A DNA stretch of 64,000 nucleotides, from positions 256,001-320,000 of the forward strand of contig CAWGVS010000005.1 of the NCBI GenBank assembly GCA_963826115.1, given 5' to 3'. Below the pieces are notes generated by a model. It saw only the letters and a program-made list of their open reading frames with translations, was not told the origin of the DNA and ran no database searches. Of this stretch, positions 4,771 through 64,000 are shown piece by piece. This DNA comes from an uncultured Candidatus Rokubacteria bacterium (GTDB lineage: Bacteria > Methylomirabilota > Methylomirabilia > Rokubacteriales > DASRDR01). The position numbers and the translations under genes were made by a program. The stretch's first letter is position 1, and each line of letters opens with the position of its first letter.

Positions 4771-6222
4771 ATGAGCACGCAAGTGCGTCGCCGAGGCTAC
4801 ATCGCGGCAGGCCTCGCCACGCTGACGGGGGCGGCCCTGCTGGCCATGATCCCGCAGCTCGGCTTCGGCCGGACGGGCCCGGACACGCTCTGGAGCGACG
4901 AGGCCCCGAAGGTCGCGAGCCAGCCCGTCACGGCTCCCGACTGGGTGAGTCTGGCCAAGGTGCTCAAGCCCGCCGTCGTCAACGTCAGCACGAAGAAGGT
5001 CGAGTCCGGCCCGTCGCTTCCGAAGGGCCTGGACCCGGACGATCCGTTCGCGCAGTTCTTCAAGCAGTTCGAGCGGAAGCCCCACGCCGTGCGGAGCCTC
5101 GGCTCGGGCTTCGTCATCCGCGCCGACGGCTATATCGTCTCGAACAACCACGTGGTGGACGGGGCCAGCGAGATCCGCGTCCGGCTGTCCGACGGACGTG
5201 AGCTGCCCGCCAAGGTGCTTGGCCGCGACCCGAAGACCGATCTCGTACTCCTGAAGATCGAGGCCACCGGCCTGCCGACGATCCCCGTCGGCGACTCGGG
5301 GACCCTCGAGGTCGGCGAGCCGGTCATGGCCATCGGGAACCCCTTCGGGCTCGAGCAGACCGTGACGACGGGTATCGTGAGCGGGACCGGCCGCGTCATC
5401 GGCGGCGGCCCCTACGACGACTTCATCCAGACCGACACGTCGATCAACCCCGGAAACAGCGGCGGCCCGCTGATCAACGGGCGCGGCCAGGCGGTCGGCA
5501 TCAACGCCGCGATCTTCAGCCAGACCGGCGGCTCCATCGGGATCGGGTTCGCGATCCCCGTGAACCTCGCCAAGCCGGTCCTCACGCAGCTGGCGGCCGA
5601 CGGCCACGTGACGCGTGGATGGCTCGGGGTCTCGATCCAGCCGGTGACGTCGGATCTGGCCAAGAGCCTGAAGCTCAACGAGACCACCGGCGCGCTGGTC
5701 TCGAGCGTGACGGACGGCTCGCCCGCCGAGAAGGCCGGTCTCAAGGCCGGCGACGTGATCGTCGAGTTCAACGGCGAGAAGGTGGCCCGCGCGGACCGGC
5801 TGCCTAGCTTCGTGGCGATGACGCCGATCGGGCGAGAGGTTCCGATGTCCGTGATCCGGGACGGGAAGCCCCTCCGACTGACCGCCAAGGTGGGGGAGCA
5901 GGTCGAGGCCAAGGAAGCCGCGGCCAAGCCCGAGAAGGCCGAGGCCCGGCTGGGCCTCACGGTCGAGCCGATCACGCCGCGCCTGGCCGAGGAGCTGAAG
6001 CTCCGCGACAAGGCCGGCCTCGTCGTTCGCGGCGTCGACGACGCGAGCCCCGCGGCCGACGCGGGCATCCAGGCGGGGGACGTCATCGTGGAGGTGAATC
6101 GGCAGCCGGTCCGCAGCGCGGCCGACATGCACCACCAGCTCGACAACAACGCGAAGGGCACGCCCGTCCTGCTGCTCGTTCATCGCGGCGCGGGCAGCCT
6201 CTTCGTGACCGTGACCGCGTAG
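4771..6222 (+). CDS. htrA: HtrA/DegP (Do) serine endoprotease with two PDZ domains
   Basis: GSGFVI, SNNHVV, DLVLLK, IQTDTSINPGNSGGPL, two PDZ repeats, N-terminal signal/TM. Confidence 0.95.
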   Translation: MSTQVRRRGYIAAGLATLTGAALLAMIPQLGFGRTGPDTLWSDEAPKVASQPVTAPDWVSLAKVLKPAVVNVSTKKVESGPSLPKGLDPDDPFAQFFKQFERKPHAVRSLGSGFVIRADGYIVSNNHVVDGASEIRVRLSDGRELPAKVLGRDPKTDLVLLKIEATGLPTIPVGDSGTLEVGEPVMAIGNPFGLEQTVTTGIVSGTGRVIGGGPYDDFIQTDTSINPGNSGGPLINGRGQAVGINAAIFSQTGGSIGIGFAIPVNLAKPVLTQLAADGHVTRGWLGVSIQPVTSDLAKSLKLNETTGALVSSVTDGSPAEKAGLKAGDVIVEFNGEKVARADRLPSFVAMTPIGREVPMSVIRDGKPLRLTAKVGEQVEAKEAAAKPEKAEARLGLTVEPITPRLAEELKLRDKAGLVVRGVDDASPAADAGIQAGDVIVEVNRQPVRSAADMHHQLDNNAKGTPVLLLVHRGAGSLFVTVTA

Positions 6223-60777: not shown

Positions 60778-61024
60778 CCCTGGGCCGGGGGATCCTTCCC
60801 GCTCGGGGTCCGCCGGACGTTCCGGTGGGGCCGGCCGGGAGGTCGAATACTCCGTGAGATTCACGCGTTTCGGTCCATCCGACGGCGGCCGTCGGGGCCT
60901 GATCGACGCCTGCCCGGGCCCTCGCGCCGGGTGGCCGGGGCCGGATCGGCTACTATCGATGCATGGAGGCAGGTCGACCCCGCGGGGGTGCCTTGCGCGG
61001 GCCGCTCGACTCGGGGCGCGAGCC

Positions 61025-62530
61025 GTGACGCCCCCGTCGCGGTCGGAGGAGCGCGCCGCCCTCCAGCAGGAGCTCCGCGAGCTCCGCACCGTCAACGAGC
61101 TCATCCGGACGCTCACCTCGACGCTCGAGCTCCCGGAGATCCTCCGAATCGTCCTCGACCGGCTGAAGAACCTGACCCAGGCTGAGGCGCTGTCGCTGAT
61201 GCTGTACGACGCGGAGCGCGACGAGCTGGTGTTCGCCGCGACCGAAACGCTCCGCGAGAACGCGGCGGTCGGCCTTCGCCTGCCGCCGTCGCGGAGCCTT
61301 GCCAGCTGGGTGGCGCGGAGCGGCGAGAGCGCCATCGTCAACGACGTGGAGCACGACCCGCGCTTCTACCCCGAGATCGACCGGCTCACTCGCTTCACCA
61401 CGCGCAACCTCCTGGCGGTGCCGATCCTCCGGCAGGGCCGCCTGATCGGCGTCCTCGAGGTCGCCAACCGCTACGGTGGCATCGCCTTCGAGGAGGACGA
61501 CCGATTGCACCTCGAAGGGCTCGCGCGGGAGGTCGGGGAGGCGTGCGACCCCGACCGGCTCTGCCACGACGCGGACGCGATGAGGGACCTCCTGTCCCGG
61601 GCCGTCCGGACGGCCCCCAGCGAGGCCGCGGCCCTCCTGCTCCTCGATCCGTCCGGACGGGAGCTCGTGTTCCAGGCGTCGCGCGCCATCCAGCCCGGCA
61701 TGATCGACGGCCTCAGGCTGCCCACGACCCGCGGGATCGCGGGGTGGGTCGCGCGGCATCGCGAGGCTGTCCGGCTGGACGACGTTGCCGCCGATCCGCG
61801 GCATTTCGCGGGCGTCGGCACCCAGACGGGCCTCGTGCCGCGGACGATGATCTGCGTGCCGATGGTCAGCAAGGGCGAGCTGCGCGGCGTGATCCAGGTG
61901 ATCAACAAGGTCGACAACTCGACGTTCACGGAGACGGAGCTCGGCGTCGCCCAGACGCTCGCCGACCACGCGGCGATCGCGATCGAGAACGCGTCGCTCT
62001 ACCGACAGGCGTACCTGGCGTCGATCACGGACGACCTGACCGGGCTCGGCAACACCCGGCACTTCCATCGGAGCCTCGCGGAGGTCATGGCGCGCGCCCG
62101 GTCGGTCTCGCTCGCCGTGCTCGACCTCGACAACTTCAAGGCGGTGGTCGACCGGTGGGGACATCTCGCGGGCTCTCGGGCGATTGCGCAGATCGGCCGC
62201 ACGATCGGCGCGCTGGTCCGGCCCGGCGACGTCGCGGCCCGCTTCGGCGGCGACGAGTTCGTGATCGTCCTCCCCGAGACGGACGTCGCCGAGGCGCAGC
62301 GGGTCGCGGAGTCGATCCGCAAGGCCATCGAGGCTTGCCAGACCCTCGAGGGGGAGGACGTCGATCTCTCCCGGGTCACGGCAAGCGTGGGTGTCGCCTC
62401 GTTCCCGGCGCACGCGGCCGACGGCGAGAGCCTGTTCCGGCAGGCGGACGCCGCCATGTACACGGCCAAGCGGCAGGGCAAGAACCGGGTGACGGTCGCC
62501 CCGCCCCCGGAGGCCGCCACCGGGGCCTGA
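61025..62530 (+). CDS. Diguanylate cyclase with tandem GAF domains
   Basis: Two GAF repeats, DDLTGLGN, DLDNFK, I-site RPGD, GGDEF. Confidence 0.95.
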   Translation: MTPPSRSEERAALQQELRELRTVNELIRTLTSTLELPEILRIVLDRLKNLTQAEALSLMLYDAERDELVFAATETLRENAAVGLRLPPSRSLASWVARSGESAIVNDVEHDPRFYPEIDRLTRFTTRNLLAVPILRQGRLIGVLEVANRYGGIAFEEDDRLHLEGLAREVGEACDPDRLCHDADAMRDLLSRAVRTAPSEAAALLLLDPSGRELVFQASRAIQPGMIDGLRLPTTRGIAGWVARHREAVRLDDVAADPRHFAGVGTQTGLVPRTMICVPMVSKGELRGVIQVINKVDNSTFTETELGVAQTLADHAAIAIENASLYRQAYLASITDDLTGLGNTRHFHRSLAEVMARARSVSLAVLDLDNFKAVVDRWGHLAGSRAIAQIGRTIGALVRPGDVAARFGGDEFVIVLPETDVAEAQRVAESIRKAIEACQTLEGEDVDLSRVTASVGVASFPAHAADGESLFRQADAAMYTAKRQGKNRVTVAPPPEAATGA

Positions 62531-62570
62531 GACCTCCGGCCACCTCACCCGGCCGCGCCGGGGCAGACCG

Positions 62571-62732
62571 TCAGCCGCCGTGATCGTGGGGCTGGGGCTG
62601 CGCCTGTCCGAGGGTCACCCTGAGGCAGCCGTAGCAGACCGGCGCCGCGCAGTCCGGGCTCTCGCAGAGCTCGCAGCACTCGACCTCGTCCCCGCACTCC
62701 GAGCACCGGTAGGCGAGGGGGCGATCGCTCAC
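62571..62732 (-). CDS. Small Cys-rich putative metal-binding protein (53 aa)
   Basis: GTGA overlap with the upstream stop. VSDRPLAYRCSECGDEVECCELCESPDCAAPVCYGCLRVTLGQAQPQPHDHGG. Confidence 0.7.
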   Translation of the reverse strand: MSDRPLAYRCSECGDEVECCELCESPDCAAPVCYGCLRVTLGQAQPQPHDHGG

Positions 62733-63457
62733 AACTTTCCTCCCGAGCCGGGCTCCGCGGGCCGCGCGTCCCCGAGCTCCCGCGCGACCCTGACCGCGTC
62801 CTGGCGGCGGAGCAGGCCGACCAGCCTCCCGTCCGACGTCGTGATCGGCACGCTCGTCAGGTCGTGCTCGGCCATGACTCTCGCCATCTCCTCGATCGAG
62901 ACGAACGGGCGGAACGTGCTGGGTCCCGGACGCATGGCGCGCTCGATCCGGAGGTCCGGCGCCGCTTCGAGCTCCGCGGCCCGCAGCAACCCCAGGACGA
63001 TCCGCTGGGCGTTGATCGCCACGCAGGCGTCCCAGCCGGCCGCACGCACCCGGGCGCGCACCTCGCCCAGCCGCTCGTCGAGCGAGCAGGTCGGGACGTC
63101 CGCTCGAGCCACGGTTCCCGCGCGAGGGCGGGCGGCATTGGCGCCCTCCGAGGGCAGTCCCGCCGCCAGCCAGTCGAGCTTGCCGGCGTCGTAGTCGTAG
63201 ACCCGCGTGAATCCGAAGCGCTCGAGCCGCCACGCGGCCCGTGAGCTGAGGTCTCAGGCCGAGTCCCAGCAGTAGACGACGATCGGTCGGCCGGGATCGA
63301 GCGCCTGGCGGGCCTCGGCCTCGAGCTTGCGAAGCGGCAGGCTCATGGCCCCTGGCAGATGGTCCTCTTCGTATTCCTTGGCGGGGAGGACCTCCACGAT
63401 CTGCGCGCCGGCGCGCATGAGCCGCCGGACCTCTTCTCGACCGATCGACTCCGGCAT
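62729..63457 (-). CDS. Rhodanese-CBS fusion, probable selenoprotein (UGA=Sec at codon 68)
   Basis: GGAGGAGG SD. HLPGA...IVVYCWDSA[TGA 63256-63254]DLSSRAAWRLERFGFTRVYDYDAGKLDWLAAGLPSE continues in frame into the CBS pair. Confidence 0.85.
63220..63246 (-). promoter_or_regulatory. Putative bacterial SECIS hairpin
   Basis: GCTC-AC-GGGCCGC-GTG-GCGGCTC-GAGC, starting 7 nt after the UGA. Confidence 0.68.
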
Positions 63458-63521
63458 GATGGTCGCCTCCTCCCAGACGCGCTGGGTCGCTCGAGGAGCC
63501 TTGCCGCTCAGCGTAGCCCGG

Positions 63522-64000
63522 TCAGCGCCACTCGGGGTAGGTCTGGGGCGCGAGCTCGTCCGCGCCCCGGCCCGCCCAGTCGAACTCGCGCATCCGGGGC
63601 CACATGCGCTCGCCGCCGGCCTGGAGCGCGTCGAGGATCGCGCGCTCGTCGGCGGCCAGGACGCGGCCGCCGTCCACCACGACGCGCCCGTCGACCCAGA
63701 CGCGGTCCACGTCCTCGGCGGTCGCGTTGTAGACGAGGTTCTTCACCGGGTCGCGGAGCGGCGTCATGCCGAAGGAGCGGCCCTTCCAGAGGACCAGGTC
63801 GGCCCTCGCGCCCGGCGGCGATGCGGCCGAGGTCGTCCCGGCCCAGCGCGCGCGCCCCGCCGAGGGTGGCCGCGTCGAAGACGTGGGCCGCGGTCGTGGC
63901 CTGGGTGTTGCGCTCCATCGTCTTCGACAGGACCGCCGCCCAGCGCATCGCCTCGATCACGCTCTGCGGGTTGGTGTCGGTCCCGAGCGACATGTTCACG
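63522..64000 (-). CDS. Amidohydrolase family protein, C-terminal part (apparent +1 frameshift near 63817)
   Basis: LGTD, ATLGGARALG..LGRIA / PGARADLV, DVDRVWVDGRVVV. Confidence 0.85.

Follow-up and report, generated by a model that had tools for sequence, protein, structure and literature searches.

A conserved cysteine-rich microprotein encoded in predicted translational coupling with a rhodanese-CBS selenoprotein gene

The small gene and its selenoprotein neighbor

Examination of a 64,000-nucleotide stretch of DNA from an uncultured Candidatus Rokubacteria bacterium (GenBank assembly GCA_963826115.1, contig CAWGVS010000005.1; the whole stretch is termed the window here) reveals a 53-codon gene for a small cysteine-rich protein, which directly follows a gene for a predicted rhodanese-CBS selenoprotein on the same strand (Table 1). 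It is practically beyond doubt that the small gene is a real, conserved gene and that it constitutes a two-gene module with its rhodanese-CBS neighbor; judged by the sequence features described below, the two form a predicted self-contained, translationally coupled operon that appears to be inherited as a unit. In our proposal, which we regard as moderately probable, the selenoenzyme has the small protein as a partner subunit, a zinc-finger-like protein that would bind metal and probably take part in a thiol/selenol relay. The module is built from parts of known kinds; what is new is the dedicated microprotein partner, with its family.

An earlier reading of the window, made from its sequence alone, had placed a 53-codon gene here, starting at a GTG that overlaps the stop codon of the rhodanese-CBS gene and concealed in a longer spurious open reading frame (ORF). 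Translation and coordinates bear out both points: in the ORF list the small gene appears only as the tail of a 220-residue ORF (62571..63233), which crosses the CBS region in another frame. Its translation (62732-62571) has cysteines at positions 10, 13, 19, 20, 23, 28, 33 and 36 and an acidic composition, with nine Asp/Glu against three Arg, and its C-terminus reads P-H-D-H-G-G (H49-D-H51-G-G), thereby ending in HGG with a free Gly-Gly. The GC content of its three codon positions (0.70/0.56/0.93) follows the same pattern as in the proven neighboring genes (0.75/0.54/0.89 and 0.73/0.51/0.93), and the other five frames differ. Furthermore, a database record has exactly this protein as the product of a gene caller on the 2.1-Mb contig, in a 90% cluster of five members. 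Purifying selection acts on the small gene: among the genes of its family, dN/dS lies between 0.14 and 0.67 for the 25 closest pairs, and 96% of 1106 pairs have values below 1. A search of positions 62300-63700 found no promoter- or terminator-like sites.

The segment 63457-62729 upstream reads as one 242-residue protein once the in-frame TGA at 63254-63256 is decoded as selenocysteine (Sec). This protein contains a rhodanese domain (PF00581; 54.3 bits against a cut-off of 22.2, E 2e-14) and a CBS domain (PF00571; 40.2 bits against a cut-off of 24, E 4e-10; residues 174-225), one CBS repeat being detected of the two expected. In a metagenome scan covering the best 80 of 524 relatives of the enzyme, TGA occupies the Sec site in 79; the remaining one, locus L046, has Cys at this site and is without the small gene. 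TGA is likewise found at the Sec site in 13 of 14 places in the genomes of relatives, where the further matches comprise a fragment of the C-terminus and, in genome G060, a match that is weak and partial; orthologs with exactly one in-frame TGA, at the Sec position, are present in nine of 14 congeners. One copy from a metagenome-assembled genome (MAG), L022 (1-902), has Arg at the Sec site within a canonical rhodanese loop (YCSDSTRDLS) and keeps the overlapping small gene. Two congener copies, L013 (G008:C82) and L005 (G013:C1), carry an extra in-frame TAG besides the TGA, and residues ~95-130 of L013 read as if frame-shifted; these may be decaying copies or assembly errors.

Shortly downstream of the UGA lies a hairpin resembling a selenocysteine insertion sequence (SECIS), with a 7-bp stem and a GUG loop, that recurs in all relatives examined. 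Across 74 distinct sequences the codons that make up this hairpin are frozen at their synonymous sites (GCC 74/74, GCG 74/74, CGG 74/74 and CTC 72/74 at codons +6, +7, +9 and +10), and the codons flanking it, for Ala, Pro, Ser, Gly and Val, use three to six synonyms; the freezing of the synonymous sites points to a constraint at the RNA level. On its own the hairpin of the window folds no better than shuffled sequences (z -0.26), an unremarkable value of the kind expected in DNA of 72% GC. The genome also encodes SelA (576.5 bits) and SelB (347.8 bits), both scoring above the curated cut-offs, and a tRNA-Sec gene adjoins selA/selB. The upstream gene is, on this evidence, a selenoprotein gene with predicted Sec decoding.

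The best match of the enzyme family to a solved single-domain rhodanese is BH2092 of Bacillus halodurans (3NHV, E 7e-15; also 3O3W). In alignments with solved rhodaneses C63 takes the place of the catalytic Cys, and Sec68 is situated at +5 in the same loop (C-x4-U); the corresponding loop of BH2092, yCW..aC (CWxxAC), represents a Cys-Cys version of this Cys-x4-Sec arrangement, although BH2092, unlike the window enzyme, lacks both CBS domains and Sec. Scores against the named models NF041203 (20.6 against a cut-off of 115) and TsoB (NF045694; 23.6 against 805) are low. A 2026 review of the prokaryotic selenoproteome distinguishes forms 1-5 of rhodanese-like selenoproteins, form 1 having the motif "UxxS" (PMC13188914), which the U-D-L-S of the window enzyme fits in a comparison by motif alone. 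The term "CBS" is absent from the main text of that review, and the rhodanese passages of its table name no partner protein (PMC13188914).

The linkage of the two genes was assessed from both sides. On the side of the small gene, a scan of one genome per species gave ten loci, of which L029 lies at a contig edge and L030 matches by chance over eight residues; in all eight remaining loci (L021-L028) an orthologous rhodanese-CBS gene is found immediately upstream on the same strand, seven with TGA and one with Arg at the Sec site. A profile search of 251 genomes from the phylum of one MAG recovered the small gene in five, and the four new loci all have rhodanese-CBS directly upstream. In total the upstream gene is present in 12/12 loci with upstream DNA, or in 11/11 if L024, from a genome flagged as unpublished, is set aside. 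On the side of the enzyme, the profile of the small family matches 56 of the 80 metagenome loci, always just 3' of the enzyme on the same strand and nowhere else in these loci. Where at least 170 nt follow the enzyme stop, the small gene is present in 52/70 loci and absent in 18/70; of the other ten loci, four break off at the contig end within a small gene and six are too short to tell. Thus the linkage elsewhere that the sequence-only reading had looked to as a check holds throughout on the small-gene side and in a majority of loci on the enzyme side, the exceptions being these 18 loci and nine congeners considered further below.

The geometry of the junction is also conserved. Among 64 pairs with an assignable start, 55 have a 4-nt overlap (ATGA or GTGA) between the start of the small gene and the stop of the enzyme gene, in 63 the enzyme gene ends in TGA, and a Shine-Dalgarno (SD)-like word precedes the small-gene start in 49. 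An overlap of 4 nt would favor equimolar synthesis of the two proteins.

Table 1. Features of the two-gene module in the window (positions counted from the first nucleotide of the window)
Feature	Position	Strand	Remark
Small gene	62571..62732	-	53 codons + TGA; member of an unnamed family; PHDHGG C-terminus
GTGA start/stop overlap	62729..62732	-	Start GTG 62732-62730; rhodanese-CBS stop TGA 62731-62729
GGAGG, SD-like motif	62739..62743	-	6 nt 5' of the GTG, within the end of the rhodanese-CBS gene
Rhodanese-CBS selenoprotein gene (predicted)	62729..63457	-	242 codons; Sec = codon 68 in YCWDSAUDLS
SECIS-like hairpin GGGCCGC-GUG-GCGGCUC	63224..63240	-	Starts 13 nt after the UGA
In-frame UGA, predicted to be read as Sec	63254..63256	-	Conserved in relatives; Sec machinery in genome

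Family and predicted fold of the small protein

An exhaustive HMMER search of 1.84 billion representatives recovered 104 cluster representatives matching the small protein at E<=1e-3, four of them at <=1e-10. Nearly all are 47-66 residues long and align through the last residue. A multiple alignment of 99 members and the query, from which five sequences of 71-154 residues with tails resembling read-through were left out (P0046, P0056, P0075, P0080 and P0088), yielded the consensus CxxCGxxIExCAFCxxxxCxxxxCYxCLxxxLGxxxxxPHxHGG. C10, C13, C20, C23 and C33 are invariant, and C28, C36, G52 and G53 are conserved in at least 90% of the sequences. C19 of the window protein is variable, so that of the eight cysteines noted from the window seven make up the conserved pattern of the family. 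Beside these cysteines, P48, H49, H51, G52 and G53 stand out as conserved residues of the tail. The HxHGG-COOH end is found in 38 of 54 distinct complete proteins, the other 16 having other tails, some with long extensions; the Cys core is thus nearly universal in the family, and the HxHGG tail is frequent without being universal. Two tail subfamilies can be distinguished. In one (L099, L100, L102, L104 and L106; small genes near 5687-5896) ...YVH(R/P)GAS... and 6-16 further residues replace PHxHGG, and in the other (L059, L063, L092 and L107) the protein ends in ...FLDRL(R/P)... with no histidines.

Members that have a record name are called "hypothetical protein", one of them from an Actinomycetota MAG. 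No family of Pfam (2025 copy) or NCBIfam (release 20) matches the small protein at E<=1, and a word-indexed homolog search at near length returned no match to it. Among 100 members all Pfam matches are sub-threshold, with PHD-like models in 11, ZZ in four, Rhodanese_C in three and RING in three; the commonest is zf-HC5HC2H (11/100, best E 7e-4). In the ESM Atlas the nearest clusters are unnamed hypothetical proteins of 50-60 residues (scores 0.93-0.96), and the nearest named clusters, DUF4428 and LIM, are weak leads. No longer or fused forms of the small protein were found, in a search that constitutes weak evidence on this point. One 57-residue member shares a 90% cluster (P0007, P0128) with a 397-residue GGDEF/HD-GYP-type protein; the two sequences look unrelated, and the co-clustering is probably an artefact. 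It is a coincidence that the small gene of the window, too, has a GGDEF gene next to it, in convergent orientation.

The homologs, the conserved cysteines and the linkage described above together support the two-gene module that the sequence-only reading had proposed as undescribed, none of them having turned out to be missing. The literature agrees with the second half of that proposal: no paper joining rhodanese, selenoprotein and CBS domain was found in full-text searches, and among the publications listed on rhodaneses, bacterial selenoproteins and CBS/zinc-finger operons none describes the pair, as far as titles and the beginnings of abstracts show. The family adds an unnamed Cys7 group of 50-60 residues to the catalogue of conserved bacterial microproteins. 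Small genes of this kind are easily lost in GC-rich genomes, where they are hidden inside longer spurious ORFs.

An AlphaFold2 model built from the 100-row alignment has a mean pLDDT (predicted local distance difference test) of 82 and a pTM (predicted template-modeling score) of 0.61. Successive blocks of the chain average 70, 92, 91, 94, 74 and 52, with values of 91-94 over residues 11-40 and lower confidence in the tail. The model consists of two 2-residue strands (8-9 and 16-17) and one helix (34-40) arranged around Cys knuckles, and does not adopt a β-grasp. A CxxC in a hairpin combined with a CxxC at the start of a helix is the arrangement of treble-clef fingers. Foldseek found no match at E<=1e-3; its rows at E 1.5-7, all non-significant, include the p300 ZZ domain (E 2.5, TM 0.39, within noise), RING and PHD fingers, YacG and zinc-ribbon ribosomal proteins. 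Likewise, the best Z that VIA-align reached over 48,161 chains was 2.3, with RING, FYVE and PHD at Z 2.0-2.1, within noise, and a search of PDB sequences with the family profile yielded nothing below E 0.026, where only zinc-knuckle look-alikes occur. The small protein shares with ZZ (p300, 6DS6), RING, PHD and FYVE domains the CxxC knuckles, a CxxC at the start of the sole helix and an HxH near the end; it differs from ZZ in its seven cysteines and in being a free-standing bacterial 53-mer, and has no significant match to the cross-brace fingers. Cross-brace or treble-clef fingers are nonetheless the type most often represented among these weak fold matches and the sub-threshold Pfam hits. 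Since the fold and Pfam matches are non-significant, we describe it as zinc-finger-like and assign it to no named finger family. Judging by the Cys pattern and the weak resemblances to zinc fingers, it is quite likely a metal-binding finger.

Within the phylum of the window the profile search finds the small gene in one of 251 genomes, the window's own; the single-sequence search found it absent from 60 relatives, and the profile search from the 250 other genomes. The impression of an orphan gene that arises from these searches was dropped, as the family lives mostly in other lineages. The MAGs bearing the pair are labeled as Actinomycetota, Chloroflexi and Dormibacterota, along with one thaumarchaeal bin. 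The thaumarchaeal-labeled contig has 68% GC and shares synteny with a Chloroflexi-labeled contig, and for these reasons its label may reflect mis-binning. The pair is thus conserved in soil bacteria labeled as several phyla, but is sporadic. In 42 pairs the distances between enzymes correlate with those between small proteins (Mantel r 0.66, with 0/2000 permutations as high), and the small protein diverges faster, at a mean identity of 40% against 67% for the enzyme. The two proteins co-diverge.

Proposed role and competing explanations

We propose that the small protein would fold as a metal-bound finger of the zinc-knuckle or treble-clef type, in which C10, C13, C33 and C36 might provide one metal site, and C20, C23 and C28, perhaps with a histidine of the tail, a second; this division of the ligands derives from the Cys pattern and the weak resemblances to zinc fingers. 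The Zn/Fe-S carrier or persulfide acceptor suggested in the sequence-only reading is a conjecture. As a subunit the small protein would be present in roughly equal numbers with the rhodanese-CBS protein and, in the complex, could join the chemistry of the Cys63/Sec68 loop by accepting, donating or resolving a thiophilic species, which might be sulfane sulfur, selenium or a soft metal. A direct physical partnership between the small protein and the rhodanese-CBS protein is a prediction we consider likely. That it actively participates in a relay of sulfur, selenium or metal, rather than being a purely structural or regulatory subunit, is a more tentative suggestion, which we would rate as possible and somewhat short of probable. 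Around three quarters of the closest relatives of the enzyme carry this dedicated, co-evolving microprotein, and the pair thereby offers a first functional handle on the enzyme family as a two-component system.

Certain precedents combine similar parts. In TA0289 of Thermoplasma (PDB 1PVM/2QH1) a CBS protein is fused to a Zn-ribbon-like domain and is credited with iron binding (as cited in PMC7521041 and PMC2447174). The present module resembles it in joining a CBS pair with a small Cys-based module, here predicted to bind metal, and the similarity of the CBS part of the window enzyme to the Ta0289 chains has E values of 4.5e-4 and 5.7e-4. It differs in that the Cys module is a separate, coupled gene with seven cysteines and a PHxHGG tail, and in that the CBS pair shares one protein with a Sec-rhodanese; neither the nine PDB sequence matches (E<=10) nor the fold matches of the small protein include a Ta0289 chain. 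Another small Cys motif tied to a rhodanese is Rhodanese_C (PF12368), the C-terminal Cys domain of TrhO/YceA-type proteins. Its matches to the three family members noted above are weak and sub-threshold (best E 0.006), and it was not found in the window's genome.

Several observations weigh against the role proposed here. If all seven cysteines and a histidine were zinc ligands, no free thiol would be left for a relay. The assignment as a zinc finger draws on non-significant matches (Foldseek E>=1.5, VIA Z<=2.3 and sub-threshold Pfam hits), and the 16 of 54 proteins without the HxHGG end imply that the tail is not essential to the core function. The partner is, moreover, dispensable: nine congeners keep the Sec enzyme and have no small gene anywhere in their genomes by single-protein and profile searches, and, with the small gene lacking at all the rhodanese-CBS loci found in them and at 18 of the 70 metagenome loci, the linkage is not obligatory. 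No enzyme residues convincingly separate partner-bearing from partner-less forms, the differences tracking one clade. In an unrooted tree of 66 enzymes (45 with the partner, 19 without and two unassigned) the presence of the partner changes 12 times under parsimony, at least five of these changes being forced by well-supported branches. Finally, the themes seen among neighboring genes are clade-specific, and the neighbors of the pair in the window, with an amidohydrolase-like gene on the upstream side and a GAF-GGDEF gene converging on the other, give no functional hint.

Regarding the losses, all 13 rhodanese-CBS loci found in the genomes of relatives are without a small gene downstream, including by the profile check. 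The window enzyme is sister to the partner-less copy of a congener (support 99), and the next clade (L031, L032, L034 and L039) has the partner in all its members. With the tree unrooted, the simplest reading would be an ancestral pair that was repeatedly lost.

A regulatory or inhibitory zinc finger that switches or caps the enzyme, by a zinc-thiolate redox switch or in the manner of the inhibitor YacG, and carries no substrate is an unlikely explanation, with several points in its favor. All seven cysteines could be structural ligands, and the acidic character of the small protein is that expected of a protein-binding rather than a nucleic-acid-binding finger. Gyrase-bound YacG figures among the weak fold matches, CBS pairs are generally known as regulatory modules, and an enzyme that works without its partner in many lineages fits with an accessory regulator. 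However, the coupling by a 4-nt overlap in most pairs points to synthesis in equal amounts, as is more usual for subunits than for regulators, and no logic of a sensor or an output is evident.

Certain gene-neighborhoods raise the further possibility that the Cys-rich protein and the Cys/Sec loop bind soft metals or metalloids such as Hg(II) and pass them on, making the two an accessory detoxification pair. Three loci of one clade, L099 (2727-5872), L104 (1698-4850) and L102 (2871-5872), show the order merA, merB-like, rhodanese-CBS, small gene, and in L109 (1428-3219) arsR takes the place of merA at the head of the same series. With 528-581 bits, the MerA proteins of L099, L102 and L104 exceed the TIGR02053 cut-off (454 bits), and that of L104 ends in the C-terminal Cys pair. 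MerB-like genes also flank the pair in L100 and L063, a P-type metal ATPase follows it in L042, and the selenoproteome review lists a Sec-containing putative mercuric transport protein (PMC13188914). In the one clade a Sec-rhodanese thus lies within an operon of the mercury-resistance type, a placement that would tie the Sec enzyme to mercury handling. The shuttle is nonetheless rather improbable. The mer-type placement is confined to L099, L100, L102, L104 and L109, five of the 64 pair-bearing loci, and to L063, which belongs to another, independent clade, and metal genes are missing from the surroundings of most loci, that of the window included. The MerB-like proteins exceed the Pfam threshold, but at 64-152 bits they score far under the NCBIfam MerB cut-offs of 193-200. 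Furthermore, the small protein of the mer-linked clade is the one with a divergent tail, extending past the usual end (...YVHRGAS...) without a terminal GG.

The position of the Sec codon, 174 codons upstream of the gene junction on the same mRNA, together with the conserved overlap geometry and the retention of UGA in 79/80 relatives, could also be read as a selenium gate, an extension of the selenium-responsive translation suggested in the sequence-only reading, in which the main function of the arrangement is that the small protein is made solely when Sec is inserted upstream. We regard this as quite improbable. L022, with Arg in place of Sec, retains both the small gene and its ATGA overlap; 49 of the 64 small genes have an SD-like motif of their own; the RNA around the start of the small gene in the window folds no better than shuffled sequences (z +0.52), so that no unusual structure masks it; and coupling of this kind is common in ordinary operons. 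It is plausible that termination at UGA68 under low selenium would lower the coupled translation of the small gene, as a by-product rather than the purpose of the module.

The C-terminal Gly-Gly brings to mind Urm1, MoaD, ThiS and CysO, which similarly end in a conserved free Gly-Gly and are genetically tied to rhodanese domains. Rhodanese domains load Urm1- and MoaD-type carriers, and the small protein could, by analogy, be a sulfur or selenium carrier outside the ubiquitin fold, its Gly-Gly being thio- or seleno-carboxylated via the rhodanese on a zinc-finger scaffold. The frequent HxHGG-COOH end, the conservation of G52 and G53 in the wider family, the rhodanese partner and the lower model confidence of the tail, consistent with a flexible arm, speak for such a carrier. 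Unlike these proteins, however, the small protein is not modeled as a β-grasp and has no carrier among its fold matches, the GG end is missing in 16/54 proteins and in some is followed by long extensions, and a ThiF/MoeB-type adenylating (E1-like) enzyme was found in 0/179 neighboring proteins, as was a JAB protease, though a distant genomic E1 is still conceivable. We hold this carrier to be very improbable. The same slight likelihood attaches to a more elaborate version, in which a flexible PHxHGG arm of the zinc-finger-scaffold carrier would reach the Cys-x4-Sec loop, be loaded there (as a thio- or seleno-carboxylate, or with His/Cys-bound S, Se or Hg) and deliver its load to acceptors, its synthesis being tied to Sec insertion by the 4-nt overlap. 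If true, a carrier of this type would mean that the chemistry of C-terminal Gly-Gly carriers is not confined to the ubiquitin fold.

It is hardly credible that the small gene is a chance open frame or encodes the precursor of a ribosomal peptide that has no relation to the enzyme: long chance ORFs are plentiful at 72% GC, seven cysteines in a short peptide recall the precursors of ribosomally synthesized and post-translationally modified peptides, and a radical-SAM gene neighbors the pair at L035, but the chance ORF is refuted by the conserved family, purifying selection, codon-position GC and conserved linkage, and radical-SAM occurs in just 1/179 neighbors, with a score under the Pfam cut-off and no recurring modifying enzyme found.

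Gene-neighborhoods of the pair

The neighbors referred to above were scanned with Pfam as 107 nearest and 72 next proteins (179 together), from genes called by a GC3-based script that can miss short or atypical genes. Within this set there is no third conserved gene, no Pfam family being found in more than 5/107 nearest or 6/72 next neighbors, the latter figure belonging to PsuG in one syntenic clade. The recurring neighbors center on thiol, redox and soft-metal themes (merA, merB-like, AhpC/TSA, DsbD_TM, OsmC and ZAS/ECF sigma). By number of loci they include: 1) OsmC and Usp-ABC1 kinase genes, in five loci each; 2) AhpC/TSA-type genes and genes for extracytoplasmic function (ECF) sigma factors or ZAS anti-sigma factors, in four loci each; 3) DsbD_TM, in two loci; 4) PsuG/PfkB, in several loci of the one syntenic clade; 5) MerB-like genes, listed for L063, L099, L100 and L109.

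In one clade a gene for a DsbD/CcdA-type membrane protein lies 3' of the pair, directly in L035 (5957-6820) and as the second gene in L038 (2381-3007), and an AhpC/TSA-type gene is found upstream of the pair in L035 and also in L037, whose locus is nearly identical to that of L038. The DsbD/CcdA-type neighbor recalls TsoB, a known rhodanese/DsbD fusion selenoprotein.

In the window, the ORF 60854-62530 on the plus strand, which resembles a GAF-GAF-GGDEF diguanylate cyclase with domains named by eye, converges on the small gene, leaving 40 nt and no terminator-like site between the two stops. On the other side of the pair, the amidohydrolase-like gene (63508-64000, minus strand) seems to be split in two frames near 63770-63815, the ORFs 63508..63999 and 63522..63767 each carrying part of one continuous-looking amidohydrolase-like protein; this split could represent a frameshift, a pseudogene or an assembly error.

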